Origin: Candidatus Multivoradales bacterium
GTDB lineage: Bacteria; Acidobacteriota; Thermoanaerobaculia; Multivoradales; JAHEKO01
Assembly: GCA_965248055.1 (NCBI GenBank)
Contig: CBDFIJ010000004.1
Span: 988,299 to 1,052,298 of the forward strand
Direction: 5' to 3'
Length of the DNA: 64,000 bases
In this document: piece by piece, positions 29,765-61,707 of the stretch
How the letters are laid out: each line of letters starts with the position of its first letter
How positions within the stretch are numbered: position 1 is the first letter of the stretch
Notes under the pieces: model-generated
The model's database searches: none
Told to the model about the DNA's origin: nothing
Seen by the model: only the letters and a program-made list of their open reading frames with translations
Program-made: the position numbers and the translations under genes

Positions 29765-29878
29765 CAGTTCGCGTCCTTTTGAGATTGAGATCCTTCGCTC
29801 GGCTCAGGACTCAGCGCCGAGCGCCTTAGCTTGGCGCTTATCTGGTAGTGGGAAAGCGTGGTGCCGATCAGTTCCCCC
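29700..29878. repeat. direct repeat copy 2 flanking vapBC
   Basis: See copy 1. Same orientation. The vapBC pair lies exactly between the copies. Confidence 0.75.
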
Positions 29879-32703: not shown

Positions 32704-32714
32704 CCCCAAATGCA

Positions 32715-34810: not shown

Positions 34811-34898
34811 TAGCTAGCTCCCCGAGCCCAAGCCGCAGACCCACCAAGTCGTGACCTGAATCGCGACCCGGCACCGGGTCTTGGACAGCTTGGCCCCA

Positions 34899-35195
34899 TT
34901 AGCCGTCGCCCTTGCGGTAGACCTCACGCCCCTCGACGTCCCAACTGTCGACAATCGCCATAATCACCGCATCGCAGGGGCGATCTTGGGTGGCCACCGT
35001 CTGCCGCGCCGAGCTGCCAGTGGCATAGAGCACCACTTCGCCCTCGCCCGCACCCACCGCGTCCACCGCGACCACGTAGCCACCGGTAGTTTTGGCTCGG
35101 TCGTCGAGTTGTTCGACCACCATGAACTTGAATCCAGCCACTCCGGGGTCTTTCTGGCTTGCCACCAGATTACCGACCACCTTGCCAAGCAGCAT
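34899..35195 (-). CDS. BMC vertex protein (BMC-P), paralog 1
   Basis: MLLGKVVGNLVASQKDPGVAGFKFMVVEQ.. 98 aa. Confidence 0.8.
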   Translation of the reverse strand: MLLGKVVGNLVASQKDPGVAGFKFMVVEQLDDRAKTTGGYVVAVDAVGAGEGEVVLYATGSSARQTVATQDRPCDAVIMAIVDSWDVEGREVYRKGDG

Positions 35196-35198
35196 CGA

Positions 35199-35489
35199 CT
35201 AGCTCTTTTTGGGCGCGCGACCCAATGGCAACGCCGCGTCGACGTTGTTGTGCGGACGAGCGATCACATGAGTGGAGACCACTTCACCGACTTTTTCGGC
35301 TCCGCGTACCCCTGCCTCAACCGCTGCTTTCACCGCGGCAACGTCGCCCCGCACCACGGCAGTGACGTAGCCACCGCCGGTCTTTTCATAACCCACCAAG
35401 TCAACCTTGGCCGCCTTCACCATCGCGTCGGCGGCTTCGACCATGGCGGAAAAACCCCGCGTCTCGATCATTCCCAGTGCTTCAGCCAT
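35199..35489 (-). CDS. BMC-H hexameric shell protein (PduA/EutM-like)
   Basis: [29 protein letters not shown].. Start at ATG 35489 with AAGGAG 6 nt upstream. Confidence 0.85.
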
Positions 35490-35597
35490 ACTCTTCTCCT
35501 TCGCCCTCAGGCGATTGTCCATTTCTTGTTAATAGCTCTCTTTACAAACTGCATTGACTGCTTTGCTTCCACTTGGCCCTTCTAACTAGCCCTGCGT

Positions 35598-36224
35598 CTA
35601 GTCGACCTTGCGTCCGTCGATCCCATCCAGGGCCGCAACTGCTGCCCGCCAACCGACGTCAATATCTCTCTCTTCACCGCCCAGGTAGACCCGGCCGAAA
35701 GAACCGATCGAGCGAACCTCCAAGACGTTGATCCCGGATGCTTTCTCGGCCTCGTTGGCGGCCAGAGCAGCGTACGGAGCGGGTTCCACCTCCAGCACAT
35801 ATAGCGTCTGCCCTGGAATAATCATCTGCCCATGCCGCATGCGATTCACCAATTGCGCTTGGTGGTCGTCAATCGCCCGCACGATTTGGCTAGAAAGCAC
35901 TTTGGGTTTGATTCGGTCACTCTCCTTCAAGCCAATGTCAGCCAAGATCGCCTCGCCCGCAGCGCGAGTCTCGGCTTGGTCCTCCGAATGGACTTCAAGT
36001 AACCCGTAGTAACGCTCGACGACCTGCATCCCCGGGCGAACCCGGGTTGACTTCAGCGCCACATCGGTCAGCCGATTAATTTCGATTCCCGGTGAAATTT
36101 CTACATATAACGAACAATCCCCGGCCAAAGGTAAGAACCCTTGTGCCACGGTGCCCATAAAAGCAGCGTATTGCGGCTGCAAGCTGTCCAAAAATACGTA
36201 CGATCGAAGATCAATATCCGCCAC
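35598..36224 (-). CDS. BMC-T shell protein with circularly permuted BMC domains (PduB/EutL-like)
   Basis: TDVALKS..V.. and [29 protein letters not shown] match the permuted-domain hallmarks of PduB/EutL. Start placed at GTG 36224 (AAAGGA 8 nt upstream). The longest ORF reaches 36374 but would overlap deoC by 160 bp. Confidence 0.6.
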
Positions 36225-37104
36225 TTGCCCCATCCTTTCGAGAAACAATGTCCTTTCCGGAGACAATCGAAATTCCTGCTGACGCGCCGATGCGGGTCGC
36301 GCCAACATTGATGAACTCGCGGACCTGTTCCGCGGTACTAATTCCACCCGACGCCTTGACCTCAAGGTCACCACCCACCGCTTCGTGCATCAACGCCACG
36401 TCATACAACTCTGCACCACCGTTGCCGAAACCGGTCGAAGTCTTGACGAAGTTGGCTTTCGCCGATTTGGCCAACCGCGACGCGACGACCTTTTCCTCAT
36501 CGGTTAACAATCCGGTCTCCAAAATCACCTTGCAGGTGGCGCCAACTTCGCGACAGGCGTCGGCAACCTTAGCGATGTCCTGCTCGACCGCTTGGTAATC
36601 ACCACTTTTCAGAGCGCCAATGTTGATCACCATGTCGATCTCACGTGCACCATCGCGCAACGCCTTGCGGGTTTCCATCGCTTTGATCTCGGTGCTGTGG
36701 GCACCCGAGGGAAACCCAACCACCGACGCCACCCGCACCGGAGAATTGCGCGTGCGCGAAGCCGCTCGGGCAACCCAAAACGGGTTGACACAGACCGCGG
36801 CAAAGCCGTAATGCTTAGCCTCATCACACAGTTGGTCGATATCGGCGGCTGTTGCACTGGGCTTCAACAGGGTGTGGTCGATGTATTGCGCCAAATCAGA
36901 CGGTACCCGACCTCCCTCTCCGTTATAGGACACACGGCGCGCACCGGTGTGGACGATCGCTCGCACCTTGTCCGAACAACAGGCGGCACAACTGCCCTCG
37001 CAGTCACTGCATTCACCTTCACTGCATTCACCCCCACTGTCTGCGCCCAGCGCGGCTAGAACTTTTTCGGTGATCTGGTTGATCAATTGCTCTCGGTCAC
37101 TCAC
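36211..37104 (-). CDS. deoC: deoxyribose-phosphate aldolase with ~75-aa N-terminal extension (amphipathic helix + Cys-rich linker)
   Basis: DeoC core YIDHTLLKP ... KVILETGLL ... KTSTGF (Schiff-base Lys region). N-terminal [15 protein letters not shown] + [25 protein letters not shown] start 3 nt after the rpiB stop. Confidence 0.85.
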
Positions 37105-37107
37105 GGT

Positions 37108-37611
37108 TTACCTCGCGCCATAGGTGCGCTCAAGTTCGTCAATCTTAGCGACTCGCAGTGCGTGGCGCCCAGGACCGTGCGGTGTCGCCAGCCAAGTGTC
37201 GACAATCTGCAAAGCCAGGCCCCTGCCGATCAGCCCGGCACCAAGGGTCAAGACGTTGGCGTGGTTGTGTTCGCGGCTGTTGCGCGCCGAAGAAATGTCA
37301 TAACAGAGGGCCGCGCGCACACCGGGCACCTTGTTGGCGGCCATCGCTGATCCAATACCCGCACCGTCAACCACTATTCCAGCGGTTGCGGACCCGTTCG
37401 CCACTTTCTGCGCTACTGCGTGCGCCATATCTGGATAATCCACCGCTTCCGGCCCGTTGGTACCGCAATCGATCACCCGGTGTCCGGTGTCGGCTAGGTG
37501 CGCCGCAATGGTGTCTTTCAATTCGAATCCGCCATGGTCTGCCCCGACCGCGACCACCAAGTCACCCCCACCATTGACCTGCTGCGTTGTGGACACACCA
37601 GCAGCGGCCAC
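37108..37611 (-). CDS. rpiB: ribose-5-phosphate isomerase B (RpiB/LacAB family); true start possibly internal near 37554
   Basis: VGADHGGFELK, catalytic Cys in VIDCG, HN..ANVLTLGAGLIG. Confidence 0.85.
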   Translation of the reverse strand: MAAAGVSTTQQVNGGGDLVVAVGADHGGFELKDTIAAHLADTGHRVIDCGTNGPEAVDYPDMAHAVAQKVANGSATAGIVVDGAGIGSAMAANKVPGVRAALCYDISSARNSREHNHANVLTLGAGLIGRGLALQIVDTWLATPHGPGRHALRVAKIDELERTYGAR

Positions 37612-42635: not shown

Positions 42636-42673
42636 ATAGATTGTTCCTCCGCGTCGAGACCTGACAGCGCGCG

Positions 42674-42697
42674 GGAGCCCGCAAGGGGCTCCTACAT
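42674..42697 (+). terminator. GC-rich stem-loop (GGGAGCCCGCAAGGGGCTCC) 40 bp past the stop of the preceding gene
   Basis: 7-bp stem and 6-nt loop seen in the sequence. No U-tract. Confidence 0.3.
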
Positions 42698-42734
42698 TGA
42701 CCTCGCACATCCTGAATTGCCGGAACGCAAGGAG

Positions 42735-43880
42735 CTGGAGATTCAGCCAACATCGAGATCCTTCGACTCGGGCTACGCCCTCGCTCAGGATGACAACGGA
42801 AGAGGTAGCTCCCCACGCCGCTATCCAGCATGCAACGAAATGCCTTCATCGGAGCGAGCTGTCCACGATCCCAATGAACTAACCCGGCCTGCTCTTCGTC
42901 GGGGAGGGGCAAGTTCAAACGGCCCTACACGCCGGGGTTATCCTGAGTGGCCGAAGCGTGCAGCTCTACCCCGTAGTCACCCTGAACGGACTATCCAAGG
43001 CCCCAAATGAACTAACCCGGCTGTTCTTCGTCGGAGAGGGGATTGCCCCCTCCCGCACCCTTTCACTGTGGTGGTCCAGAGCGACCGAAGCGTACAGCTC
43101 TACCCCGTAGTCACCCTGAACGGGCTATCCAAAGTCCCAAAATGAACTAACCCGGCGCTGTTCTTCGTCGGAGAGGGGATTGCCCCACCCGCACCATTCC
43201 ACCGCAGTGGTCCAGAGCGACCGAAGCGTATTGCTCTACCCCGTCGTCATTCTGAGCGAACCAGTCATCCGCTCAGCACCCATTCCACCCGTGGTCATCC
43301 TGAGCGACCCCGAGTCCGCGAGGGAGAGTCGAAGGATCTCAACTTCACAGCGCACACTCTTTCTGCAGAGGGCAGCATTGTCGCGACCCGAACTGAGGAA
43401 GGCAAAAAACGGGAACCCCCAAGGGGATCCCCTACATCGTCTTCCAACGTCAGGTGAATCGCCGAAACGGAGAACCATTCGCCAGCATCGAGATTCTTCG
43501 ACTCGGGCTACGCCCCTCGCTCAGGATGACAACGGAAGAGGTAGCTCGCCACCCCGGTACCCAGCATGCAACGAGTTGCCTTCATCGAAGCGAGCTGTCC
43601 ACGATCCAAATGAACTAACCCGGGCTGTTTCTTCATAAGAGAGGGCTTGTCCCCTCTCACACCCCTCCACCGCGGTCGTCCCGATCGACCGAAGCGTACA
43701 GCTCTACTCCGTTGTCATCCTGAGCGACCCCGAGTCCGCGAGGGTGAAGTCGAAGGATCTCAACTGCACCGCGTACACTTCTTCTGGAGAAGGCAGCATT
43801 GTCGCGCCACTAACTCAAGAGGACAGAACGGGAACCTACGAGGGCGCCCCTACATTTCTTTTTCTTGGTGGCTTCGTAGG
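42735..43880. repeat. complex repeat region: two ~370-bp duplicated modules carrying F2 elements (GAGATCCTTCGACTC..CGCTCAGGATGAC in both orientations), plus three tandem ~128-bp subunits each carrying a GAGGGG-N5-CCCCTC hairpin
   Basis: 42750-42890 matches 43487-43625, and 43290-43440 matches 43712-43855, at ~90% identity. Subunits at 42875/43003/43131. Reading frames through it (DDNGRGSSPRRYPACNE..) are repeat-derived. Confidence 0.7.
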
Positions 43881-50753: not shown

Positions 50754-51644
50754 ATGCAGCACGAGAGCATCGGAAACACCGCATTCTCGGCCTCATCCGT
50801 CTCCTACGGCGCCTGGCCGCTTTCCGACCCGTCCCCTCGCCCCACCGAAGCGGAGGCTATTCAGGTGGTCCACGCCGCGTTGGATGGTGGAGCGACGCTG
50901 ATCGATACCGCGGATGCTTACTGCCTGGAGCAGAGCGAGGTGGGGCACAACGAGCGGTTAGTGGCCAAGGCGCTGAAGGCCTGGTCGGGGCCGCAATCTG
51001 GAGCCAAGCATGAGATCACGGTGGCAACCAAGGGCGGGTTCGTCCGGCCCGGCGGTCAGTGGGTGTCGAAGGCCGATCCAGAGCACTTACGCTCCGCTTG
51101 TGAGCATTCGCTGCGATGTCTCAACACCGACTGCATCGACCTGTATCAACTCCATGCCCCAGATCCCAAAGTGCCGCTGGAGGACAGCGTTGGAACGCTG
51201 GCCGCTCTGCAGCAGGAAGGCAAGATTGACAAGATCGGGCTTTCCAATGTCTCGGTGGCAGAGATCGAGATCGCCCGATCGATCGTTGAGATCGTCAGCG
51301 TGCAGAGCCGACTCAATCCGTTCTTCCGTGAGGCGCTGCGCGACGGCGTAGTCGATCATTGCGACCAGAATGGTCTGGTGTTCTTCGCCTACAGCCCGCT
51401 GGGCGGTGGCCGGCTCAACCGCAAGTTGCCCGAGATTCCCGAACTGCAGGCGATCGCCGAGAGCCACGGTGCCTCCAACCATGCGGTGGTCTTGGCCTGG
51501 GTGCTGGCGCAAGGGTCCAACGTGGTGGCGATCCCGGCTGCGCGTAGGATTGCACACGTGCTCGATAGCCAGTCGGCTGCCTCAATCGAACTCAGCGCCG
51601 AAGAACTGGCCTTGATCGACGCGGCGACCTTCTCCATCGCTTAG
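50754..51644 (+). CDS. aldo/keto reductase
   Basis: LIDTADAY (Asp/Tyr of the catalytic tetrad), AKR-type (beta/alpha)8 barrel throughout. Confidence 0.85.
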   Translation: MQHESIGNTAFSASSVSYGAWPLSDPSPRPTEAEAIQVVHAALDGGATLIDTADAYCLEQSEVGHNERLVAKALKAWSGPQSGAKHEITVATKGGFVRPGGQWVSKADPEHLRSACEHSLRCLNTDCIDLYQLHAPDPKVPLEDSVGTLAALQQEGKIDKIGLSNVSVAEIEIARSIVEIVSVQSRLNPFFREALRDGVVDHCDQNGLVFFAYSPLGGGRLNRKLPEIPELQAIAESHGASNHAVVLAWVLAQGSNVVAIPAARRIAHVLDSQSAASIELSAEELALIDAATFSIA

Positions 51645-51650
51645 GACAGC

Positions 51651-52406
51651 GTGCCAACCTTCGCCCTTTTGTGTCTTCTGCGCCTCTTGGCGGTCGGGGC
51701 GGAAGACGACAATCGCCCTGCTGTCCCGGAGCTTCTGTACGGCAGCCAGACGCAATACCCGATCTGGGTTTCGCTGGATGCGATCAACCAGAACGGTGTC
51801 GACCCGAACTATCCGCACAATGAGGTGGTGTGGGACAACCGCCCCATCGCACTCATGCCCTCCGCCGAATGCGACGAAACGACCATGATCTACGATCATT
51901 TCGGATGGATCGAGCGCCGCCCGGAGAGTGTTGAAGAGCTGTTGACAAACGAGCAGCCGATACTCCGTTTTGAAATCGTGCATTCGACTCCTGGCTTCTA
52001 TACCGGCATGCCGGCGTTCATGCTCCAATTGCGGACCGAGTGGATGAGCGAATCCGCGTTCCGAAAGTACGGCTGGCGGTCGTACTTCAATGCTGCATTG
52101 TTGGAAGGTTCATTCAGACAAGGGGATCAGTACCAATGCTGGAATCAATTAGGTGATGGAGAGCTTGCTCTCCAATCTCTCACTGTTGGATCAGACGTCC
52201 TGTACTTGCCATTGCACGAAGCATACGGTCACGAGGCTTTGGAGTTCGTATATGCGGAAGAAATCTTCGCGCGAGGCCAGGACGGCACCGAGTTGATCCC
52301 CGACGAGCTGAGCAAATCCAGCCCATCACCTTTGTCTTTTGAAGTGATTGAGAAGGTGGTCCGCAGTAGCTTACGCCAAGTGGTACAGCCGGAAGACTTC
52401 GACTAG
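51651..52406 (+). CDS. hypothetical protein
   Basis: 251-aa ORF. GTG start 7 bp after the AKR stop. Lower GC. No known motif recognised. Confidence 0.35.
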   Translation: MPTFALLCLLRLLAVGAEDDNRPAVPELLYGSQTQYPIWVSLDAINQNGVDPNYPHNEVVWDNRPIALMPSAECDETTMIYDHFGWIERRPESVEELLTNEQPILRFEIVHSTPGFYTGMPAFMLQLRTEWMSESAFRKYGWRSYFNAALLEGSFRQGDQYQCWNQLGDGELALQSLTVGSDVLYLPLHEAYGHEALEFVYAEEIFARGQDGTELIPDELSKSSPSPLSFEVIEKVVRSSLRQVVQPEDFD

Positions 52407-52469
52407 AAACGCTCTAAGTACCCGCTCGTTCGCCGCAGACGGCGTGCGAGAACAGGCCGACTCAGGTGG

Positions 52470-53095
52470 GCCGGTCGATACAGATTCCCGCCCCTCGCTC
52501 CCCACCCGCTGGAATGACGGGCTGCTACTACCTTTTACCCCACCCGCGTCAGAATGGGAGGGGGCAACCCCCTCGATCCAACTCAGCGCCGAAGAACTGG
52601 CCTTGATCGAAGCCGCGACCTTCTCCATCGCCTAGCTATCAACGTATTCAAAACGACACACCCCCAACTCGTCATCCCGGCGGGGAAAGGATTGGGGGGC
52701 CGGGATCTACACATCTCAGCTGCGGAATCTGCACGCCCACCTTGGCAAAGATTCCCGCCCCACGCTCCCCTCCCGCGGGAATGACCGCCTGCTTTGCAGG
52801 GGCGGGTTTTACCCGCCCGCGTCAGAACGGGCGGGGACAAACCTCCCCCCTACTTCTCCATCGCCTAGCTATCTCCGCGCGCCCTTATGACCTACCCAAA
52901 CTCGTCATCCCGGCGGGGGAAGGATTGGGGGGCCGGGATCTACGCATCCCAGCTGCGGAATCTGCACGCCCACCTTGGCAAAGATTCCCCCCCACGCTCC
53001 CCGCCCGCGGGAATGACGGGCTGCTTTGTAGGGTCGGGCTTTACGCCCGCCCGCGTCGGAAGGGAGGGGATAAACCCCTCCCCTACACCTAGCTG
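52470..53095. repeat. tandem array D: ~240-bp module x~2.6, each carrying a divergent F1 palindromic element, a GGGAGGGG-N4-CCCCTCCC hairpin and a copy of the last ~60 bp of the AKR gene
   Basis: 52650-52890 vs 52890-53095 ~90% identical. Tail ..SAEELALIEAATFSIA* at 52577-52635 duplicates the AKR C-terminus (51585-51644). Confidence 0.7.
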
Positions 53096-53140
53096 GCGTA
53101 TGCGTACGAAGCGCGGCCCGAGCACTGCTACCATCACCGC

Positions 53141-55078
53141 ATGATGTATCGCCGTCTTCTATTTGCTGCCGTTGGATCGGCCTTAGCTTTCGTCGCCACA
53201 GCCCTCGCTGCGCCCACCGACAAACCGGTACTCCACGCCCAGCATTGGCTGGCGATCACCGGTAAGCCTTTGGGAGCCAGCGCCGGAGCACAGATATTCA
53301 CTCAAGGCGGCAACGCGGTGGACTCGGCTTGCGCGATGCTGGCTGCGACTTCCACCATGTGGGACACGTTGGGTTGGGGCGGGGAAACGCAGGCGTTGAT
53401 CTATCACCCAGGCGAGAAACGGGTGATCGGCATCAATGGACTAGGGGTCGCTCCCAGCGGCGCCACGGTCGAGTTTTTCCGCGAACAAGGATTACTCTAC
53501 CCACCTGAATTCGGTCCGCAAGCAGCGGTGACCCCAGGAACGCCGGGCGCGCTGATGACCATGCTGGCCGAGTACGGAACGATGTCGTTAGCCGAAGTGC
53601 TGGCCCCGGCGATGCAGATGGCTGAGGGCTATCCAGTTGAGGCGCAGCAGGCCAACAACATGGAGCGTCGGCGCGAGATTCTCGTCCAGTGGCCGAGTTC
53701 GAAAGAGGTTTTCCTACCCCACTGGGATACCTGCGCTGCGGCGAGCGAGGACGGAGTCCCTTCCGAAGACTGCCGTGTAGCCCCCTACCCAGGGGAGATC
53801 TTGCGCCAACCGGACCTGCACCGCACCTTAGCCAAACTGGTGGAGACCGAAGTCGAGGCTTTGGCTGCAGGCAAGTCGCGCAGCGAAGCAATCTACGCCG
53901 CCTATGACCGTTTCTATCGTGGAGACGTCGCGGAAGACTTGGTTGCCGCTACCCGCGAAGCGGGAGGACTGTTCACCGTCGAAGATCTGGACAACTGGCA
54001 GGTATATATCGAGGAGCCGGTGTCGGCGGACTACCGAGGCATTGAGGTCTACAAATTGACCCATTGGGTGCAAGGGCCGGTGATGCTGCAAGCTTTGAAC
54101 ATGCTCAAGAAACTCGACCTAGAGCCGATGGGCTACAACTCCGCGCTCTACATCCACTTGGTCAATCAGGTGATGAACCTGGCCTTCGCCGATCGAGATT
54201 TCTACTACGGCGACCCATATTTTCCGCCCGAGGAACCGATTGAAGGTCTGCTGTCGGATGACTATGCCGCTCACCGCTTGCTCCAGATCGACTGGAAGCA
54301 GAATGACGCGGACGCCAAGCCCGGTAATCCCTACCCGTTTCAGAACGGTGAGAATCCGTTCAGCGACCTCCTAGAGTCTTGGAGCAATATCCCGGCCACC
54401 GTGGACGCAGAAGGAAAGGAGAGCTGGCAGCAGACCTTGCTTCCTCCGAATGGAGCCACACCCCGCGGTTCGATGACCGCGGACGAGGCGTTCGTCGCCG
54501 GCACCACTTCGATCCAAGCCGCCGACGAGCAAGGATGGGTGGTCTCGATCACCCCGTCCGGCGGTTGGATTCCCGCGTTTATCGCCGGGGATACCGGCAT
54601 CGGCTTATCGCAGCGGATGCAGAGCTTTGTTTTGGACGAACGGCTCAATCCCTACAACTTGTTGGAACCGGGAAAGCGGCCCCGCGCCACCCTCACTCCT
54701 GGCATGGCACTCAAAGACGGCAAGCCGTATCTCTCGTTTGCCGTCCAAGGTGGTGACACCCAGGATCAGAATCTGCTGCAGTGGTTCTTGAACGTGGTTG
54801 AGTTTGGCATGAACGCCCAGCAAGCCGCCGAGGCTGCCAACTTCAACTCCTACCAAATGCAGTCCAGCTTCGGCGCCCACAACGCCGAGCCGGGACGTTT
54901 GGTGGTGCGCGAGGACCTGCCGGTGTGGGTCACCGACAAGCTGAACGAAATGGGCTATTCGGTGGAAAAGAGAGCCAAGACCTCGGGACCGATTACTGCC
55001 ATTGTCTTTGACCATGAAACCGGGACCATGTGGGGAGCGGCGAGTGACTTTGGGGAGGACTATGGGGTCGGGTGGTAA
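53141..55078 (+). CDS. ggt: gamma-glutamyltransferase family protein
   Basis: Signal peptide. GGT-like N-terminal region. Autoprocessing/nucleophile region ..AGTTSIQAADEQGWVVSITPSGG.. Confidence 0.75.
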   Translation: MMYRRLLFAAVGSALAFVATALAAPTDKPVLHAQHWLAITGKPLGASAGAQIFTQGGNAVDSACAMLAATSTMWDTLGWGGETQALIYHPGEKRVIGINGLGVAPSGATVEFFREQGLLYPPEFGPQAAVTPGTPGALMTMLAEYGTMSLAEVLAPAMQMAEGYPVEAQQANNMERRREILVQWPSSKEVFLPHWDTCAAASEDGVPSEDCRVAPYPGEILRQPDLHRTLAKLVETEVEALAAGKSRSEAIYAAYDRFYRGDVAEDLVAATREAGGLFTVEDLDNWQVYIEEPVSADYRGIEVYKLTHWVQGPVMLQALNMLKKLDLEPMGYNSALYIHLVNQVMNLAFADRDFYYGDPYFPPEEPIEGLLSDDYAAHRLLQIDWKQNDADAKPGNPYPFQNGENPFSDLLESWSNIPATVDAEGKESWQQTLLPPNGATPRGSMTADEAFVAGTTSIQAADEQGWVVSITPSGGWIPAFIAGDTGIGLSQRMQSFVLDERLNPYNLLEPGKRPRATLTPGMALKDGKPYLSFAVQGGDTQDQNLLQWFLNVVEFGMNAQQAAEAANFNSYQMQSSFGAHNAEPGRLVVREDLPVWVTDKLNEMGYSVEKRAKTSGPITAIVFDHETGTMWGAASDFGEDYGVGW

Positions 55079-55336
55079 GAATGACGAGCACGGGCCATCA
55101 TCAACGCCCCTTGGACGTCGGAGAATACGCGGACAGATCCCGGCTCCCCTCCCCCACCCCCGCCGGGATGACGGAGGCGGCGCTCCCCGAAATGACTCGG
55201 GTTGAGGCGCCCGCCGGAACGACATGAGCATGAGACGGGCTTGCCCTCGGTCGAGGGCGTCATTCCCGCGGGCGGGAGTGCCCGGACCGGAAAGCCGAGG
55301 GCGGGAATCTGGTGGACGATGAATATCCAATAGCTA

Positions 55337-56146
55337 ATGAAGAGACCACCCCAAAGAGATCCGGTGATCAGCGGCGAGACCTCCATCGACCGGCTTCGCG
55401 CCCTCATCGAACATCTGCGCGGACCCGACGGCTGTGCCTGGGACCGAGAACAGACTGTGCAATCGGTGCGCGCCAATCTGCTGGAGGAAGCGCACGAAGT
55501 CGCCGCAGCAATCGACGGCGGTGACAACGACGAACTGCGGGAAGAGCTGGGCGATCTGCTGTTCCAAGTCGCGTTCTTGGCGCGCATGGCTGAGGAAGAA
55601 GGGATCTTCGATTTCGACCAAGTCGCCAATGAAGTAGTCGACAAGATGATCGCCCGGCATCCGCACGTATTCGGCGATGAGGTCGCCGAGACCGCCGCCG
55701 AAGTGCGTAAGCAGTGGGAGCACCGCAAACAGGCAGATCGAGAAGATAAGAGCGGAACCAGATCGGCGCTGGATGGCGTTCCCACCACCCTGCCGGCACT
55801 CACCGGCGCCTATCGCCTGTCACAGAAAGCAGCAGCGCTGGGCTTTGATTGGCCGGACATCGAAGGCGTCCTCGACAAACTCACGGAAGAATGTCGCGAA
55901 CTGGCCGAAGCCGAGACTGCGGATGAAATCGCCGATGAATTTGGTGATGTGCTGTTCAGTTTGGTTAACCTAGCCCGACACCTGGGGCTGGAACCAGAGG
56001 GGGCCCTGGCGGCGGCCAACATTAAGTTCCGCACCCGCTTTGGGAAAATGGAAGAGATAGTCGCCAACGAAGGGGATCGAGTCTCGGATCTAACGTTAGA
56101 TCAGCTTGAGGACCTCTGGCAGAGGGCCAAACAGAGCCTCGATTAA
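55337..56146 (+). CDS. mazG: nucleoside triphosphate pyrophosphohydrolase MazG (tandem MazG domains)
   Basis: EEAHEVAAAIDGGD..EELGDLLFQV and a second copy EECRELAEAE..DEFGDVLFSLVNLARHL. Confidence 0.85.
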   Translation: MKRPPQRDPVISGETSIDRLRALIEHLRGPDGCAWDREQTVQSVRANLLEEAHEVAAAIDGGDNDELREELGDLLFQVAFLARMAEEEGIFDFDQVANEVVDKMIARHPHVFGDEVAETAAEVRKQWEHRKQADREDKSGTRSALDGVPTTLPALTGAYRLSQKAAALGFDWPDIEGVLDKLTEECRELAEAETADEIADEFGDVLFSLVNLARHLGLEPEGALAAANIKFRTRFGKMEEIVANEGDRVSDLTLDQLEDLWQRAKQSLD

Positions 56147-56264
56147 GACTCATGAACGGGAGGGGATGACCCCCTCCCCTGCCTTAAGAAAATAGTTTGT
56201 GGAGATAAACGGATCGCCTTTGCGTGTTTCTCGTAGGGAGAGGGCCGCGATCGCCTCCGACTCA

Positions 56265-57060
56265 CTCGTCATCCCCGAAGGGCGGGGGTTTGGCGGTCAG
56301 GGTCTTACAAGCGAAAAGACTACCGACGGATTACGTGACTGGCTGAGATCCCGGCCCCCCGCCCTCACACCCGCCGGGATGACGAGGGCTACCCGCGGCC
56401 GGATGACGAAGGAAGTGCCTGCCGGGATGACAAGGGAAATGTACGCCGAGATGACGGAAGCGGTACCCGCCGGACGACTCATCTGTGTCATCCCCGAAGG
56501 GAGGTGGCTCCGGGGGGCGGGAATCTTTCAAGCGCAGGGTCACCGACGGATTACCTGGTTGGCTGAGATCCCGGCCCCCCGCCCTCACACCCGCCGGGAT
56601 GACGAGGGCTACCCGCGGCCGGATGACGAAGGAAGTGCCTGCCGGGATGACAAGGGAAATGTACGCCGGGATGACGGAAGCGGTACCCGCCGGACGACTC
56701 ATCTGTGTCATCCCCGAAGGGAGGTGGCTCCGGGGGGCGGGAATCTTTCAAGCGAAGGGTCACCGATGGATTACCTGGTTGGCTGAGATCCCGGCCCCCC
56801 GCCCTCACACCCGCCGGGATGACGAGGGGTACCCGCGGCCGGATGACGAAGGAAGTGCCTGCCGGGATGACAAGGGAAATGTACGCCGAGATGACGGAAG
56901 CGGTACCCGCCGGACGACTCATCTGTGTCATCCCCGAAGGGAGGTGGCTCCGGGGGTCGGGGATCTTTCAAGCGAAGGGTCACCGACGGATTACCTGGCT
57001 GAGATCCCGGCCCACCGCCCGCACACCCGCCGGGGTGACGAAGGAAGTGCCTGCTGGAAT
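56265..57060. repeat. tandem array A: ~220-bp unit x~3.7 built on the F1 element (TCGTCATCCCCGAAGGG..GGTCGGGGATC..GATCCCGGCCCCCCGCCCTCACACCCGCCGGGATGACGA) followed by four ~24-bp sub-repeats with a GGATGAC core
   Basis: Unit boundaries 56485/56705/56925 read from the sequence. Units >95% identical. Open frames on both strands are not in register across units (220 is not a multiple of 3). Confidence 0.8.
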
Positions 57061-57106
57061 GACGGAAGAGGCGCAGGCGCCTGCTTTTCAAGCATCTACT
57101 TATCGA

Positions 57107-57535
57107 CTACGCGAAATGCGCCTGCAGTGCTCCCAGCAATGCCTGATAGATCGGCATGCAAAATTCGTGGGTGTCTGCGTCACTGGCGGTTTGGTAGTTA
57201 CTCTGCCACTCAACGAAGGTCCGCTCTCCGATCGTCACTGGCAAGACTCGGATACTGCCCACGTAGCGGACAATGTTCGCTGCCTCTAGGGGACCAGGGC
57301 CATCGTCGATGGTGTACTGCAGGGTTCGGTATTGGTCGTCGAGCCCGATCAAGGTCTCGTGGAACACGCCATTTAAAACCCGTTTGGCGCCAATTTGATC
57401 GGCGGCGGCTCCGCCGGTCGGCTCGTTACTCTCCAAGACTCCCGCTGCCCAATCGGTATTGTGAAAATTCCGTAGCGCAGCCCAGACATCGTCGACCGAA
57501 GCGTTGACTACACAACTGTTGTAACAGTGACCCAT
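57107..57535 (-). CDS. SRPBCC (START/Bet v1-like, polyketide-cyclase-type) domain protein
   Basis: 142 aa. ..VDDVWAALRNFHNTDW.. pattern of SRPBCC ligand-binding proteins. Sits between two repeat arrays. Confidence 0.55.
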   Translation of the reverse strand: MGHCYNSCVVNASVDDVWAALRNFHNTDWAAGVLESNEPTGGAAADQIGAKRVLNGVFHETLIGLDDQYRTLQYTIDDGPGPLEAANIVRYVGSIRVLPVTIGERTFVEWQSNYQTASDADTHEFCMPIYQALLGALQAHFA

Positions 57536-58019
57536 CTTCCCCCCTTCCGCGGTGTCGCGGAGATGTTGTGACCGGAGAGTACCCCGACTTTGATCATGCA
57601 GCCGCCGCTCGTCGGCGACCTAGTGAGGGCAATACGGGTTGCTGCGGTGACAAGATTTATGGAATGAGCATGCTGTGAAAAGGGATTAATCCCGCTCCGT
57701 CGTGGCTGCGGAGAAGCACCTGTGGAAAGAGGCTGTGCTTCTCGCCCAACTCGCGAGGTAGACGGCGCATCGAGATCCTTCGACTCCCCTCTAAGACTCG
57801 GGTCGCTGAGGATGACAATAATTAGCGACACCGAAACACCAACCTCTCAATTTTGCCGCCGACCGCGGGGTGGAATGTGTCCGCTTACCCCAGAGAAAGT
57901 GGTTCATCCTTGATCGCTGTAAAACAATTCCCGGTGATCGTGGGAGGGGATAAACCCCTCTCCACATAAGGATTGGTTCACGGTTGACAACGCCGACGAT
58001 CCTCTTGTCGTGGCGGGGC

Positions 58020-58095
58020 CTGGATTCTCGGACCTGACGTTAGATCAACTTGCGGACTCCTGGCAGAGGGCGAAACAGAGCCTCGATCTTGACTG
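58020..58095. repeat. duplicated fragment of the mazG 3' end (last ~70 bp of CDS) fused to the head of array B
   Basis: ..TLDQLADSWQRAKQSLDLDW* at 58030-58097 vs mazG ..TLDQLEDLWQRAKQSLD* at 56095-56146. ~85% nucleotide identity. Confidence 0.7.
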
Positions 58096-58114
58096 GTAAA
58101 CGGGAAGGGATAAC

Positions 58115-59215
58115 TCATCTGTGTCATCCCCGAAGGGCGGGGGTTTGGCGGTCGGGGATCTTATGAGCGAAGGGATCAGCGACCGATTACGTACTGGACT
58201 GAGATCCCGGCCCCCCGCCCTCACACCCGCCGGGATGACGAAAGCGGGCCAGCCGGGATTACGGAGACGGTACCAACGGGAATTACAAAGGTGTGCCCGC
58301 CGGAATGACTCATCTTCGTCATCCCCGAAGGGCGGGGGTTTGGCGGTCGGGGATCTTATGAGCGAAGGGATCAGCGACCGATTACGTACTGGACTGAGAT
58401 CCCGGCCCCCCGCCCTCACACCCGCCGGGATGACGAAGGCGGGCCAGCCGGGATTACGGAGACGGTACCAACGGGGATTACAAAGGTGTGCCCGCCGGAA
58501 TGACTCATCTTCGTCATCCCCGAAGGGCGGGGGTTTGGCGGTCGGGGATCTTATGAGCGAAGGGATCAGCGACCGATTACGTACTGGACTGAGATCCCGG
58601 CCCCCCGCCCTCACACCCGCCGGGATGACGAAGGCGGGCCAGCCGGGATTACGGAGACGGTACCAACGGGGATTACGAAGGTGTGCCCGCCGGAATGACT
58701 CATCTGTGTCATCCCCGTAGGGAGGGGGTTTCGGGGGGTCGGGGATCTTTCAAGCGAAAGGACTACCGACGGATTACGTGACTGACTGAGATCCCGGCCC
58801 CCCGCCCTCACACCCGCCGGGATGACGAAAGCGGGCCAGCCGGGATTACGGAGACGGTACCAACGGGAATTACAAAGGTGTGCCCGCCGGAATGACTCAT
58901 CTTCGTCATCCCCGTAGGGAGGGGGTTTCGGGGGGTCGGGGATCTTTCAAGCGAAAGGACTACCGACGGATTACGTGACTGACTGAGATCCCGGCCCCCC
59001 GCCCTCACACCCGCCGGGATGACGAAGGCGGGCCAGCCGGGATTACGGAGACCGTACCAACGGGGATTACGAAGGTGTGCCCGCCGGGATGACGAAAGCG
59101 GGCCAGCCGGGATTACGGAGACGGTACCAACGGGAATTACAAAGGTGTGCCCGCCGGGATGACGAAGGGTGCGCCGGGGCAAGCTCTCACACCGCCGGGG
59201 TGACAAGCGCCCACC
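58115..59215. repeat. tandem array B: ~198-bp unit x~5.5 built on the F1 element
   Basis: Units begin at about 58115, 58312, 58510, 58707, 58905 and 59077 (partial). Identity is near 98%. The 3' end runs into the start region of the helicase gene. Confidence 0.8.
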
Positions 59216-59235: not shown

Positions 59236-61707
59236 ATGCGTATCGATGCCCAAGCCAGTCGCATCGAAGTTTCGGTCGCGGATCTGATCGAGTCCGGTTC
59301 CAGGGGGAGTCTGGGGTTCGGTCAGCGCGGCGGCTATGAGCGGATGTGGATCGGCCAGGCGATCCACACTCGTTATCAAGAGCAACAGCATAACGACGAC
59401 CCGAGTTATCAAAGCGAGCTCGGGATCAAATCCACGGTTGTCATTCGGGGCTGGGAGGTCACGGTGCGCGGTCGCATCGACGGCCTGCGGCAAGAACCTA
59501 ATGGCACAGCCGTGGTGCAAGAGCTCAAGTCAGTGCGGCGAGACCGACCACCCTCCGAGGCAACCCTGAAGATGTATCGGGAACAGGCGGCAGTCTATGC
59601 CTGGATGCTGTCTCAGGAGCAGGCGCAAGAGCAGGCGGATTCTTCGGAAGAGGAATCCGACGACGCTCCAGAGACTTCAACAACTTCGGCCAAGGTCGAT
59701 GCCGAGCTGGTGCTGATCGAGGTCGCCTCCTATGAGGCTTTGATTGAGCCGCTGGAATTGAACCTTTCCGAGGTCGACACTTGGGTTCGCAAGCGGCTAC
59801 AGCGGATGGTGGGACAAGCGCAGCAAGCACAAGCAGAGAGAGACACTCGGGCCCGTGCCGGCCGCCACTTAGTTTTCCCCCATGACCAGACGCGACCTGG
59901 GCAGCAAGCAATCATCAAAGCCACCGAGCGGGCAATCGAGCAACAAGAGCATTTGTTGATCGAGGCGCCGACCGGGTTGGGTAAAACCGTAGCCGCGCTC
60001 TATCCAGCGGTCAAAGCGGCGTTAGAGGACGATTTAAAGGTTTATGTGCTGACCGCCAAGAATCTGCAGCAAGAAATGGCGCTCAAGGTGATGGAGATGC
60101 TCAACGTAGAGCAGAGCTTCTCCAGTCTGCAGGTACGGGCCAAAGCACGGATGTGCGCCAACGACGAAATCGTCTGTCACGAGGACTACTGCCGTTTTGC
60201 TCGCGATTACTTCGGCAAGCTGCACGCCAGCGGCTTAGTGGATCAATTGGCGGACGGATCGACAGTTCGGCCCGATACGGTGTTTGAGGCAGCCAGTCAG
60301 TTGGAAGTCTGCCCGTTTGAGGTCAGCCTGGAGTTGGCGCGTCGTTGCCATACTGTGATCGGCGACTACAACTATGCCTTTGATCCCTATGTCGCCCTGC
60401 GCGACTTCGGACCGGAAGGCAATCTCGAAAACTCGATTTTGATCATCGACGAGATCCACAATTTGGTGGAACGCGCCCGCGGTTATTGGAGCCCCGAGCT
60501 CTCCAGCAAGTCATTGCGCATAGCGGCGGGATTTGTCGCTGCGCAAGGGTCAACCGGGCCAGCCATAGCCCATCTCATCGGCCAACTTGCTTCGCGTATT
60601 GAGGAAGACGTCGACTTCGCCTTTGAGGACCACCCGCCACAGATCCAAGAAGTCCAAGGGGAGCTAGCCGCCGACGCCTTTGCCCTGCTGCGCCCCGATT
60701 TTGATGACGCTTTCTTGGATCACCTGGAGTCGATGCGGGCTTCTAAGGCAATGACCGCCGATGACCCGATCCGCGATCAGTACTACGGATTTCAGCGTTT
60801 CATGGACACCGCCCGGGAGGCCGATGACCAGACTTTTTCCACCGTGTTTCGCCGGGATGGTGAGGATCGACGCATCCAGATCTTCTGTTTGGACCCGAGC
60901 CGTTTTCTCAAACGCATCTTTGAGCGCAGCCGTGCGATCATCGGGCTCTCGGCCACCCTGTCCCCTCCTGAGTTCTATCGCGACCTACTTGGGCTGGATC
61001 AAGATCGCTGGACATTCGAGAAAGTCGAGAGTCCCTTTCCCGAGGAAAACCGAAGGGTGGTGATCGACGATGAGGTCTCAACCCTGTGGCGTGATCGCCC
61101 TGACAACTACGGATTGATCGCCGAACGCCTGGGAGATTTCGCCTCGGCAGTACCCGGCAATGTACTGGCACTGTTTCCGAGCTATCAGTTTCTGGCTGAA
61201 GTGGCGCCGCGGATGCACCTGGATGGCAAGCGCATCGCAGTCCAAGAACAGGCCAACAGCGCCAAAGATCGTGACCGGCTGCTGGACACCCTGCGAGATG
61301 GCACCGGGAACGTGCTGCTGCTGGCGGTCGCTGGAGGGGTGTTCGCCGAGGGCGTCGACTATCCGGGCGAGATGTTGAAAGCGGTGGCGGTGGTCGGTCC
61401 GGCACTACCGCCGGTATCGCTCGAGCGTGAACTGCTCAAACGCTATTACCAGGAGCAGTTTGAGCGCGGCTTTGAATACTCCTTCGTACTTCCCGGTATG
61501 ACCCGGGTGGTGCAGGCTGCGGGACGATTGATCCGTTCCGACACCGACACTGGGGTGATCGCGCTGTTTGGTCATCGCTTCAAACGCGCCCCGTATCTGG
61601 ATTACCTGCCGGAGGAGTGGTTTGTCGATGGGGACGTTGCAGCCAGCATCGGTACTCCATCGGTGGCCACAGCGAAATTTTTTGCTGGGCTTGAAGTCGA
61701 GGCGTAG
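59236..61707 (+). CDS. PD-(D/E)xK nuclease domain fused to an XPD/DinG/Rad3-family Fe-S helicase
   Basis: N-terminus with GRIDGL ... VVQELKS (motif II/III of RecB-like nucleases). Helicase Walker A EAPTGLGKT. Four-Cys Fe-S module MCANDEIVCHEDYC..C. DEIH box (IIDEIHN). Start set at ATG 59236, downstream of array-derived sequence. Confidence 0.75.
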   Translation: MRIDAQASRIEVSVADLIESGSRGSLGFGQRGGYERMWIGQAIHTRYQEQQHNDDPSYQSELGIKSTVVIRGWEVTVRGRIDGLRQEPNGTAVVQELKSVRRDRPPSEATLKMYREQAAVYAWMLSQEQAQEQADSSEEESDDAPETSTTSAKVDAELVLIEVASYEALIEPLELNLSEVDTWVRKRLQRMVGQAQQAQAERDTRARAGRHLVFPHDQTRPGQQAIIKATERAIEQQEHLLIEAPTGLGKTVAALYPAVKAALEDDLKVYVLTAKNLQQEMALKVMEMLNVEQSFSSLQVRAKARMCANDEIVCHEDYCRFARDYFGKLHASGLVDQLADGSTVRPDTVFEAASQLEVCPFEVSLELARRCHTVIGDYNYAFDPYVALRDFGPEGNLENSILIIDEIHNLVERARGYWSPELSSKSLRIAAGFVAAQGSTGPAIAHLIGQLASRIEEDVDFAFEDHPPQIQEVQGELAADAFALLRPDFDDAFLDHLESMRASKAMTADDPIRDQYYGFQRFMDTAREADDQTFSTVFRRDGEDRRIQIFCLDPSRFLKRIFERSRAIIGLSATLSPPEFYRDLLGLDQDRWTFEKVESPFPEENRRVVIDDEVSTLWRDRPDNYGLIAERLGDFASAVPGNVLALFPSYQFLAEVAPRMHLDGKRIAVQEQANSAKDRDRLLDTLRDGTGNVLLLAVAGGVFAEGVDYPGEMLKAVAVVGPALPPVSLERELLKRYYQEQFERGFEYSFVLPGMTRVVQAAGRLIRSDTDTGVIALFGHRFKRAPYLDYLPEEWFVDGDVAASIGTPSVATAKFFAGLEVEA

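Follow-up and report, generated by a model that had tools for sequence, protein, structure and literature searches.

Several described systems resemble parts of the locus studied here. In Neisseria, the dRS3/NIME elements form intergenic mosaic arrays downstream of genes, and minimal mobile elements are strain-variable small gene cassettes that lie between conserved genes and are exchanged by recombination anchored there. The elements e14 and phage 21 at icd, as well as islands at tRNA genes, integrate into the 3' end of a gene and bring a replacement end with them. REP-mediated tandem duplications in Salmonella, with REPs as join points, were reportedly found by Shyamala, Schneider and Ames in 1990. 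Homology-facilitated illegitimate recombination, in which foreign DNA enters via one homologous anchor and a microhomology joint, is said to have been described by de Vries and Wackernagel in 2002. The GTAG- and CGTC-tagged superfamilies of REPs were defined by Di Nocera, De Gregorio and Rocco in 2013 (PMC3733652). It has already been reported that REP clusters are reiterated along with flanking DNA, that dRS3 of Neisseria is a CGTC-type REP and that most Neisseria CGTC elements occur in large clusters (PMC3733652).

The locus lies in a stretch of 64 kb, referred to as the window, which contains genes for an aldo/keto reductase (AKR), MazG and a DinG/Rad3-like helicase. The 3' ends (tails) of the AKR and mazG genes recur among repeat modules. 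The coordinates refer to the window.

REP elements at the 3' ends of genes

The repeat modules belong to the two described REP superfamilies, GTAG-tagged and CGTC-tagged, and these two kinds, a GTAG-tagged hairpin and CGTC-tagged dimers, fill the spacers 3' of genes in this genome. The GTAG-type REP has an 8-bp stem and a 5-nt loop (-18 to -19 kcal/mol), and its motif, GGGAGGGG-N5-CCCCTCCC(CTAC), is found in three copies in the window and in eight copies in 21 kb of the related locus L081. The superfamily tag is present as CTAC, the complement of GTAG, directly 3' of the stem at 52849-52852 and 53083-53086, and it also follows most of the eight L081 copies when these are read by eye. Members of the GTAG superfamily are described as GC-rich palindromes of 20-40 bp with a short loop that occur in many copies and are accompanied in the genome by a gene for a RAYT, an HUH tyrosine transposase. 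The GTAG-type copies seen here, which are a small sample, are palindromic and extragenic, and every one of them lies between tandem or convergent genes, not between divergent genes.

The CGTC units of modules 1 and 2 read CGTC followed by ATCCCGGC...GCCGGGAT, or inverted, ATTCCCGC...GCGGGAAT followed by GAC(C/G), and those of arrays A and B read CGTC followed by ATCCCCG...CGGGGAT. As in the described superfamily, the CGTC tag precedes a stem of 8-9 bp starting with AT. The units form head-to-head dimers with the tags outward, so that a dimer makes one long hairpin (125-135 nt, -54 to -60 kcal/mol, z about -2.5). The elements thus share with the described REPs (PMC3733652) the short GC-rich palindrome, the unpaired tag, GTAG (here CTAC on the + strand) or CGTC, the head-to-head arrangement of the CGTC units and the location mostly downstream of genes. 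Nevertheless, the loops of the CGTC units are G-rich or C-rich and 15-20 nt long, where 4-5 nt have been described, so that these CGTC-like units belong to an undescribed subtype outside the families CGTC-1 to CGTC-4. Further differences from described REPs are the regular arrays, with periods of 195-233 bp and internal sub-repeats of 23-24 nt, the carriage of flanking DNA that is a recognisable gene end, and a window in which no RAYT gene is visible. No family of Rfam matched.

In the window and in the relatives a GC-rich hairpin stands within about 3-12 nt of stop codons, which supports the placement of hairpins at gene 3' ends in the original prediction. Its suggestion that these hairpins are terminator-like did not hold in the canonical sense, as no T tract follows the stems (the sequence 3' of them is CTAC.. 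or CTGCC..) and they fit GTAG-tagged REPs. Between 50000 and 63000, six terminator-like sites were found against 11.4 expected, and none of the six coincides with a hairpin.

The core sites of attC in integrons have the form RYYYAAC ... GTTRRRY and are used with an IntI integrase. A cassette array of this kind was rejected: the element ends are CGTCATCCC.../...GGGATGACG and not GTTRRRY, no integrase was found among the scanned large ORFs of the window, and the flanks are syntenic housekeeping genes.

Copies of the AKR gene end

The AKR gene (50754-51644, + strand) encodes a product with a Pfam Aldo_ket_red match (E = 8e-60) that reaches the end of the profile, and its functional tail (tail1) occupies 51580-51644. 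An extra tail (tail2) is present at 52571-52635 on the + strand, slightly longer than the 52577-52635 at first proposed, and 60 of its 65 nt are identical to tail1 without gaps (92%). The local score of the pair is 55 against 11.6 +/- 2.0 for shuffles (z = 21.6), and self-blastn gave E = 1.6e-15. By the codon table tail2 is still in frame and retains the stop codon. It sits 991 bp from the true tail, and the block bracketed by the two tails contains ORF251 (51651-52406, + strand), which begins 6 nt past the AKR stop codon. This gene is an ORFan with a signal-peptide-like N terminus, without a Pfam match and with itself as sole match among 5.8 billion proteins. Its coding signal is genuine, with a frame score of +0.24 compared to -0.30 and -0.29 off frame.

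Three repeat modules, all on the + strand, accompany the copies. Module 0 (52424-52574, -14.3 kcal/mol) combines a diverged CGTC-REP dimer, whose right arm is at 52482-52520, with a truncated GTAG-type hairpin 3' of it (52556-52574), and this hairpin is joined directly to the extra AKR tail via a CCTC microhomology. Module 1 (52636-52852) comprises a leader, a CGTC-REP head-to-head dimer (about 52670-52787), a small hairpin (52800-52818) and a GTAG-type REP whose final CTAC reaches to 52852; its segment 52666-52790 folds with -54.2 kcal/mol (z = -2.5). Module 2 (52874-53094) ends with a GTAG-type REP (53062-53082, -19.2 kcal/mol), the CTAC tag at 53083-53086 and, 3' of this last module, the 7-nt remnant CCTAGCT at 53088-53094. 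Modules 1 and 2 are 90% identical to each other.

A mini-tail (52853-52873, + strand) begins the second of the 233-bp units, and it consists of the last 16 nt of AKR (52853-52868) and 5 nt of module leader. Taken alone the 16 nt reach only z = 1.0, and the copy can be considered real only because it stands in register within a 233-bp tandem repeat (52662-53086, 1.8 copies, 90% matches, score 713), at whose junction 21 nt (cttctccatcgcctagctatc) run identical with the preceding unit. A truncated tail had indeed been predicted at about 52850, of which only these 16 nt are gene sequence. The accompanying proposal, that arrays grow by units of gene end plus repeat, is borne out by the unit at 52853-53086, which carries 16-21 nt of gene end, and fails for the two long copies. 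The head-to-tail arrangement with nothing unique in between that a simple tandem duplication leaves is seen only in this 233-bp unit. The 65-nt and 99-nt copies are not adjacent to the true tails, from which they are separated by 991 and 1944 bp, and 0.9 and 1.9 kb of mostly unique DNA with whole genes intervene. The 16-nt mini-tail alone is therefore simple array growth.

The mazG tail copy and the genes between the tails

The mazG gene (55337-56146, + strand; Pfam MazG, E = 1.7e-34) ends in the functional tail1 at 56072-56146, and 11 nt after its stop codon a GTAG-type REP hairpin (56158-56178, + strand; -17.9 kcal/mol, z = -3.0) is found whose tag reads CTGC. The extra tail (tail2) at 58016-58114 on the + strand contains the last 75 nt of the gene and the 24 nt past the stop, which are the left half of the REP hairpin. 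In the comparison of 56072-56170 with 58016-58114, 80 of the 99 nt are identical (81%; z = 27.5, E = 4e-18). The copy had been placed at 58030-58097 and is thus longer than supposed, and it is joined to array B as had been said; with z = 21.6 for AKR and 27.5 for mazG against shuffles, chance is excluded for both pairs. The stop codon of tail2 is changed from TAA to CTT.

Array A (56260-57070, + strand) has 3.5 units of 220 bp (tandem repeat 56268-57041, score 1329), each a CGTC-REP dimer followed by 24-nt sub-repeats of tag and half-stem, and shows no coding signal. Array B (58113-59200, + strand) has five units of 195-197 bp together with 70-nt and 23-nt sub-repeats (tandem repeats 58113-59093, score 1656, and 59010-59168), and extends to the promoter region of the helicase gene (59236-61707, + strand), which was recognised by Pfam and whose start at 59236 is set by the identical 823-aa protein P0122. 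Tail2, 1944 bp from the true tail, meets array B at ...GGATAAC followed by TCATCT. Past a 93-nt indel the similarity between the two mazG tails resumes in the first repeat unit of each array, these units being identical at 123 of 134 positions. As the similarity runs into the first REP unit, the duplicated anchor appears to have been tail, REP and array together.

Upstream of tail2 no further similarity was detected (p = 0.26). ORF142 (57107-57535, - strand), which is convergent with mazG, encodes an SRPBCC/polyketide-cyclase-like protein (Pfam Polyketide_cyc2, E = 3.9e-14) and shows coding signal. Together with its upstream region (57536-58015) it occupies the space up to tail2, whose left edge is abutted exactly by this block with no array sequence between. 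Each long tail pair brackets a block with a whole gene, ORF251 in the case of AKR and ORF142 plus array A in the case of mazG. A third case of the same anatomy exists in the window, where a VapBC pair lies exactly between two 184-nt copies of the 5' end of a kinase gene; this was the only other significant direct gene-end duplication outside the arrays in a self-blastn of the window. All three long duplications have a gene between the repeats, and these are the only cases in 64 kb, with none in 54 kb of the relatives.

Comparison with related loci

The locus was compared with three related loci (L081, L087 and L088) from two relative lineages, L087 being the closest. The AKR orthologues of L081 and L087 have 76-77% amino acid identity, MazG has 82% to L087 and the gamma-glutamyltranspeptidase (GGT; gene at 53141-55078, + strand; Pfam G_glu_transpept, E = 2.5e-92) has 85% to L081. 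The GGT gene is located between AKR and mazG in the window and in L081, and not in L087/L088. In the latter two the AKR stop overlaps the mazG start, a single REP is found 3 nt past the mazG stop and the helicase starts about 130 nt past this stop. L081 has single CGTC dimers after AKR, after mazG and before the helicase. In L081 and L087 the interval from AKR to the gene that follows it does not contain ORF251, neither the ORF251 block nor the ORF142 block had a match at the corresponding positions of the relatives, and ORF142 had no protein or nucleotide match in their fetched loci. Given the compact order AKR, mazG, one REP and helicase in L087, everything that separates these genes in the window was added later. 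The comparison demonstrates that the window lineage gained DNA here repeatedly, as REP dimers and arrays, as one 233-bp tandem reiteration and as gene-bearing blocks.

Each tail is single-copy in all three related loci. For mazG against L087, three-way counts gave 7 sites common to both copies, 5 specific to tail1 and 13 specific to tail2, and for AKR 14-21 shared sites, 1-2 specific to tail1 and 2-3 specific to tail2. As judged from these sequences, the extra tails arose within this lineage, that of AKR recently and that of mazG long ago. The extra tails decay neutrally: the nonsynonymous changes that can be polarised by the outgroup (four of eight, compared by eye in the codon table) fall on the extra copies, and the mazG copy has lost its stop codon. 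These same observations, the absence of the copies in relatives and the lack of an Rfam match speak against a function of the tails, be it as RNA segments that act as decoys or regulators or as a reserve of gene ends with which recombination could switch the C-terminus. Such a role, to which the in-frame AKR copy with its stop codon and the strongly folding hairpins beside both copies could be attributed, was already disfavoured and seems extremely improbable.

The counts also bear on integration of the e14/phage 21 kind, with which the locus shares a duplicated gene end, an intact gene on one side and a displaced pseudo-end beyond the inserted DNA. Islands that targeted the AKR and mazG 3' ends with a replacement end, and later decayed to attL/attR-like repeats and a remnant gene, would explain why direct repeats of gene 3' ends bracket foreign-looking DNA with the gene restored upstream, and why the AKR copy retains frame and stop codon. 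However, the three-way counts make both copies sisters within this lineage, the blocks measure only 0.9-1.9 kb, the repeats are of unequal length (16, 65, 99+ and 184 nt), and what lies at the left boundaries is a REP hairpin instead of a common core site. Moreover no tyrosine or serine recombinase, integrase or transposase was found in the blocks or among the scanned large ORFs of the 64-kb window. We consider this origin quite improbable.

Movement of the REP dimers as non-autonomous elements by a RAYT/TIRYT-type HUH transposase or another enzyme, with aberrant use of a surrogate end in the gene tail so that the tail was carried along, is suggested by the CGTC and GTAG tags, which are motifs associated with such elements, by the 233-bp junction exactly after the CTAC tag, by the 7-nt CCTAGCT flanking the module pair, and by acidobacterial TIRYT genes reported with families of terminal inverted repeats. 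MITEs have terminal inverted repeats and a target-site duplication of fixed length; terminal inverted repeats are present here, and the flanking CCTAGCT would also be given by the register of a tandem duplication. Against this, no Y1/HUH transposase occurs among the large ORFs of the 64-kb window and no dedicated transposase has been reported for CGTC REPs. The mazG REP hairpin occupies the same position in L087, which marks it as old and static. IS200/IS605-type movement gives no target duplication, and the apparent one at the mazG REP of the window, a TTAAGA pair, is absent in L087. Such transduction is very improbable.

Origin of the extra tails

We lean towards the view that the extra tails are non-functional junction scars of recombination in REP clusters, the two long copies being best read as duplication scars of insertion events. 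When DNA is added and the break on its left falls within the final 16-75 nt of the gene upstream, only an event that duplicates this end would keep the gene intact; the complete gene would remain upstream and the second copy of its end would be left beyond the added DNA. A gene tail would thus be copied because the breaks lie within the gene end, where the gene survives only if its end is duplicated, and not, as had been thought, because the hairpin sets the limits of a unit to which the tail belongs. The 16-nt mini-tail was probably produced by slippage or unequal sister exchange with the junction exactly after the CTAC tag of the REP. The 65-nt and 99-nt copies could each come from a single insertion flanked by duplication, in which homology would anchor the inserted segment at its gene/REP end and microhomology would provide an illegitimate joint at the other. 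Candidate routes are Campbell-type integration of a circle, homology-facilitated illegitimate recombination of a linear fragment and replicative template switching. The REP hairpins might supply some of the break or stall points as well as short homologies, such as CCTC at the AKR junction and GGATGAC/GGATAAC at the junction of mazG with array B.

The microhomologies at the junctions have 4-7 nt and stand in a GC-rich, repeat-rich context in which coincidence is possible. That homology-facilitated illegitimate recombination makes duplications, as opposed to deletions, is assumed in this proposal. The Salmonella REP duplications and homology-facilitated recombination are laboratory events of larger scale, unlike the products seen here, which are old, fixed and partly decayed and whose mechanism is deduced from the junctions only. 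The order of events is likewise deduced, no intermediate or donor genome having been found and the nearest relatives having only 76-82% amino acid identity.

A possible though rather unlikely explanation is pure array growth, the model of the original prediction, by tandem duplication of gene tail plus REP module through slippage or unequal crossing-over; ORF251 and ORF142 would have been inserted later and independently, once the spacers had become larger. The 233-bp unit does exactly this, the arrays of 2-5 units and the 23-24-nt sub-repeats testify to rampant tandem reiteration, and the reiteration of REP clusters with flanking DNA is described (PMC3733652). Moreover the right half of module 0 (81-89% over two aligned stretches), modules 1 and 2 (90%) and the AKR tails (92%) are similarly diverged, as if co-duplicated, but the left half of module 0 cannot be aligned with module 1. 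At mazG the later insertion would have to hit the duplication joint precisely, since the ORF142 block abuts tail2 without array sequence, and the VapBC pair between the kinase 5' copies demands an equally precise insertion. The presence of a gene between the repeats in all three long duplications also argues against this explanation.

For the preferred origin by insertion, a one-step reading is supported at mazG by the unique ORF142 block ending exactly at the start of tail2, and the VapBC/kinase case is alike. The AKR copy fits a two-step history equally well, namely a tandem duplication of tail and module, after which ORF251 entered the first of the two units. Co-duplication is in line with the right half of module 0, which matches module 1 at about 85%, but its left half is unalignable. 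As ORF251 has no homologue anywhere, a donor locus with AKR followed by ORF251 is hypothetical.

Whether REP clusters at gene 3' ends are a general site of gene capture in this lineage is doubtful. Small gene segments (the ORFan secreted protein, the SRPBCC protein, the VapBC pair and perhaps GGT) would be integrated beside conserved genes by one-sided homology in gene end and REP, each event leaving a displaced copy of the gene end. The placement of ORF251, GGT and ORF142 between AKR, mazG and helicase recalls the minimal mobile elements of Neisseria, although the double homologous crossover of those leaves no duplicated gene ends and the present organism is unrelated, its nearest named homologues being acidobacterial. 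If true, such capture would resemble integrons or minimal mobile elements but need no recombinase, and direct repeats of gene ends would reveal it across the genome.

Implications

The tail copies are a real and fairly ordinary by-product of repeat-driven genome rearrangement and not a new kind of system. The locus is a dated example, resolved to single bases, of the growth of a compact operon through REP clusters, the junctions from AKR through mazG to the helicase taking about 2 kb in a relative and here about 7 kb of repeats plus three extra genes. It also explains the stray gene-end fragments beside repeats, as only events that duplicate the end spare the gene. Spurious ORF calls can arise from such pseudo-tails, which can also mark past insertions and, through comparison of a constrained copy with a free one, serve as internal molecular clocks.

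Organisation of the locus

The region opens with a gene for a DUF4143 ATPase, followed by the aldo/keto reductase gene (AKR, 50754-51644), ORF251 (51651-52406), about 690 bp of repeat modules and the gamma-glutamyltranspeptidase gene (GGT, 53141-55078). A repeat spacer of 258 bp separates GGT from mazG (55337-56146). Behind mazG come array A, with its 3.5 units of 220 bp, and the minus-strand gene ORF142 (57107-57535, SRPBCC family). Some 480 bp of unique DNA lead from there to array B, which has 5 units of 195 bp, and then to the gene for a DinG-like helicase (59236-61707), whose nearest named homologues belong to Thermoanaerobaculia and Acidobacteriota MAGs. ORF251 is an ORFan, yet its coding signature is normal.

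Duplicated gene ends

The last 65 nt of AKR are repeated at 52571-52635 (60/65 identical, z = 21.6 against shuffled sequences, blastn E = 1.6e-15). For mazG, a second copy of the last 75 nt and the 24 nt behind them lies at 58016-58114; it agrees at 80 of 99 positions (z = 27.5, E = 4e-18). The original prediction of duplicated AKR and mazG tails is therefore confirmed, with corrected boundaries. It had counted three AKR tails, of which the 65-nt copy is significant, but the third holds only 16 nt of gene sequence (52853-52868) and is not significant alone (z = 1.0). This mini-tail, where the identical run is 21 nt (alignment A1), stands at the head of unit two in a tandem repeat with a period of 233 bp (TRF score 713) and is a plain tandem reiteration of a REP module carrying some of the flanking gene end. 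Moreover, a 7-nt remnant, CCTAGCT, lies after the last module on the AKR side (53088-53094). Just before the mazG start, at 55326-55339, the sequence tccaaTAGCTaATG is similar to the last bases of the AKR tail, tccatcgccTAGCT, and may be one more trace, too short to evaluate, of the ancestral junction between AKR and mazG.

On the AKR side the order is the functional gene end, ORF251, module 0, the extra tail, module 1, the mini-tail, module 2, CCTAGCT and GGT. Module 0 is diverged and has a truncated hairpin end (...ccccctc), modules 1 and 2 ending in ...cccctac and ...cccctaca respectively. The joint of module 0 with the extra tail has CCTC in common with the gene, and that of module 1 with the mini-tail lies exactly behind the CTAC tag. 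No similarity was found beyond either edge of the 65-nt repeat (upstream p = 0.98, downstream p = 0.86).

The similarity between the two mazG copies extends past the 99 nt: beyond an indel of 93 nt it takes in the first CGTC dimer, so that the duplicated piece comprised the tail, the REP and at least the first array unit. The first units of arrays A and B agree at 123 of 134 positions, and the first unit of array A agrees with the next one at 119 of 136. The joint of the extra tail with array B (...GGATAAC/TCATCT) mimics the normal joint between units (...GGAATGAC/TCATCT), which suggests a microhomology deletion. At its left edge the extra mazG tail adjoins the unique DNA upstream of ORF142, and no further similarity to mazG was found to the left of it (p = 0.26).

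Nature of the repeat modules

The modules are built of two types of element. The first is a small hairpin, GGGAGGGG-N5-CCCCTCCC, usually with CTAC behind it, which folds at -18 to -19 kcal/mol and is found three times in the window and eight times in 21 kb of L081, the locus of a relative lineage. The second has CGTC at its start, ahead of a stem of 7-8 bp whose first bases are AT (ATCCCGGC...GCCGGGAT or ATTCCCGC...GCGGGAAT), and its loop measures 15-20 nt; these units stand in head-to-head pairs, and every pair folds as a single long hairpin, 125-135 nt in length (-54 to -60 kcal/mol, z of about -2.5). GTAG-tagged and CGTC-tagged palindromes are the two REP superfamilies of Di Nocera et al. 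2013 (PMC3733652), in which the described CGTC families have a loop of 4-5 nt. Our two element types match these superfamilies, the CGTC loop length excepted. Membership of the GTAG superfamily is supported by tag, stem, loop and location; the CGTC units agree in tag, AT-first stem and head-to-head dimers but differ in loop length, and are therefore called CGTC-like, of an undescribed subtype. The nearest known kind of structure is thus the REP/BIME cluster, specifically that of the GTAG and CGTC superfamilies.

The hairpins had been described as terminator-like, but as no T tract follows any of them they are not canonical terminators. Known RNA families and tRNA/tmRNA attachment sites were also considered and rejected, none being found in the Rfam and tRNA scans. 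A scan of metagenomes with the CGTC-dimer motif returned only three short contigs, without the other repeat families bar one CGTC-type end in L084. Within each array unit the 3' half-stem and its tag (CCGGGATGACG) are in turn repeated, 3-7 times and at a period of 23-24 nt (56372-56456, 56592-56676, 56812-56896, 58424-58504 and 59013-59168), which looks like the same end-duplicating process on a smaller scale.

The window also holds a third dispersed repeat family of about 55 nt, (A/T)TGAGATCCTTCGACTC...CGCTCAGGATGAC(A), whose GATGAC end is common with the CGTC units. Copies lie at 42755, 43490, 57772 and 61789 on the plus strand and at 43340 and 43761 on the minus strand, with three further matches in L085. 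The 1.2-kb non-coding spacer behind the DUF6503 gene (42640-43860) carries nested repeats (136-bp period, 2.2 copies; pairs 42778/43514 at 92% and 43327/43748 at 81%) of a module family different from those on the AKR and mazG sides. A perfect 18-nt tandem repeat, GGCTCCAGTCAGTGCTTC, is present in 4.1 copies at 1308-1380, within the minus-strand ORF 696-2225 for a DUF4340 protein. The genes at 32440-37611, encoding a BMC-domain shell protein (Pfam), an aldehyde dehydrogenase, a DeoC/LacD aldolase and RpiB, resemble a bacterial microcompartment locus, one concerned with the metabolism of sugars or aldehydes.

Arrangement in relatives

Loci of relatives were reached through the homologues P0002, P0003, P0124 and P0125. 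In L087/L088, the second relative lineage and the closest (MazG 82% and AKR 76% identical in amino acids), the AKR stop overlaps the mazG start (TGATGA, 1440-1460 in L087), one GTAG-type hairpin lies 3 nt past the mazG stop and the helicase starts about 130 nt past that stop (2220-2400 in L087). The compact order AKR-mazG-REP-helicase is therefore ancestral or, at the least, one of the states available. The REP behind mazG keeps its position between the window and L087 and is hence old.

In L081 (AKR 77%, GGT 85% and MazG 73% identical) the order is AKR, 340 bp, GGT and mazG, with a single CGTC dimer after AKR and another after mazG; the helicase is 30 kb off, again with a single dimer ahead of it. 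Given the overlap of AKR with mazG and the close helicase in L087, GGT looks like an insertion common to the window and L081. A scan of genome contigs for GGT gave, among the matches listed, a best match of 75% identity and none of 80 loci syntenic; the best loci among them are largely from Acidobacteriota MAGs, which together with the helicase homologues makes an acidobacterial source probable. In L081, at 10915-10945, the sequence behind the AKR stop is TAATGAGGGTC; it may be what is left of the original mazG start, which reads ATGAGCGGGTC in L087. The mazG gene call of L081 spans two REP hairpins and overlaps GGT (13113-13210), and neither ATG, GTG nor TTG occurs in the stretch from the hairpins to the conserved IPGDTP motif; the original start was apparently displaced by the insertion of REPs.

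Age and decay of the copies

Each tail is single-copy in every relative. In three-way comparison with L087, the mazG copies have 7 sites common to both, 5 specific to the functional tail and 13 specific to the extra copy. For AKR, 14 (against L087) or 21 (against L081) sites are common to both, 1-2 are specific to the functional tail and 2-3 to the extra copy. These counts place both duplications inside the window lineage and later than its split from both relatives, the AKR duplication being recent and that of mazG old.

The tails differ by 7 synonymous and 8 nonsynonymous changes, and the nonsynonymous ones fall on the extra copies wherever an outgroup (L081, L087) is informative. The pattern is one of neutral decay, with nothing to suggest a foreign allele; diverged functional alleles were rejected on the same grounds. 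The window mazG is 3 codons shorter than that of L087 through a change of the ancestral CAA to TAA (56144-56157). The extra mazG copy has lost the stop codon; it keeps the C at the CAA/TAA site, with a TAA stop at the ancestral stop position. The extra tails are thus decaying pseudo-fragments, and a function for them carries little weight. TTAAGA was rejected as a target-site duplication of the mazG REP: its first copy arose by the CAA to TAA change, and the REP occupies this position in L087 too, where the second TTAAGA is lacking.

Origin of the long copies

The two long repeat pairs bracket blocks of 926 bp (AKR) and 1845 bp (mazG), each containing a gene that is missing at the matching positions in relatives; neither the ORF251 block nor the ORF142 block is matched in the fetched loci, and the mazG block occupies the whole interval, up to the very edge of the repeat. 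The window contains a third duplication of this form, in which two 184-nt copies of a Ser/Thr kinase gene's 5' end (84% identical, 28774-28957 and 29688-29870, minus-strand genes) enclose a VapB/VapC (PIN) toxin-antitoxin pair (28955-29625). The kinase gene at 28272-28793 is frameshifted and truncated, and inside each copy an element of about 80 nt, palindromic, lies between coding duplications of about 28 nt (LSHYQI.. / LSHYRI..).

According to the original prediction the arrays grow by duplicating a gene end plus a repeat unit. This holds for the mini-tail with its 233-bp tandem unit, but the two long copies bracket gene-bearing blocks, and pure array growth is the less likely source of them, ahead of the remaining rivals. 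We consider it somewhat more probable than its rivals together that the long copies are insertion scars, each pair left by one event in which an insertion became flanked by a duplicated anchor, since a separate insertion would need to have struck exactly at the joint of the duplication in two or more of the three cases. On the AKR side a two-step history, in which tail and module were duplicated and ORF251 was then inserted, is nearly as good as one event. A large tandem duplication including ORF251 or ORF142, with loss of the second gene copy, is disfavoured: no remnant of either gene lies past the second tail, and the leader and left arm of module 1 are not derivable from module 0 by deletion.

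The steps behind such single-event scars are inferred. A circle carrying the gene end could have integrated in the Campbell manner, a linear fragment could have entered via one homologous anchor and one microhomology joint, or replicative template switching could have occurred. An addition with its breakpoint inside a useful gene would survive only when the gene end is duplicated, and selection of this kind would explain why a gene end is what is seen. Decayed integrase islands and transposase-mediated transduction are given small weight, because no integrase, transposase or HUH enzyme was found among the large ORFs of the window. The organisation resembles the dRS3/NIME arrays and minimal mobile elements of Neisseria, and the outcome is like that of islands integrating into the 3' end of a gene such as icd.

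That REP clusters act as recombinase-free gene-capture sites is perhaps conceivable, though rather improbable. Whatever the mechanism, the copies are very probably neutral recombination scars at REP clusters, and the gene-end copies are a clear, datable case in which REPs were reiterated along with the DNA beside them, and of scars left by insertion.
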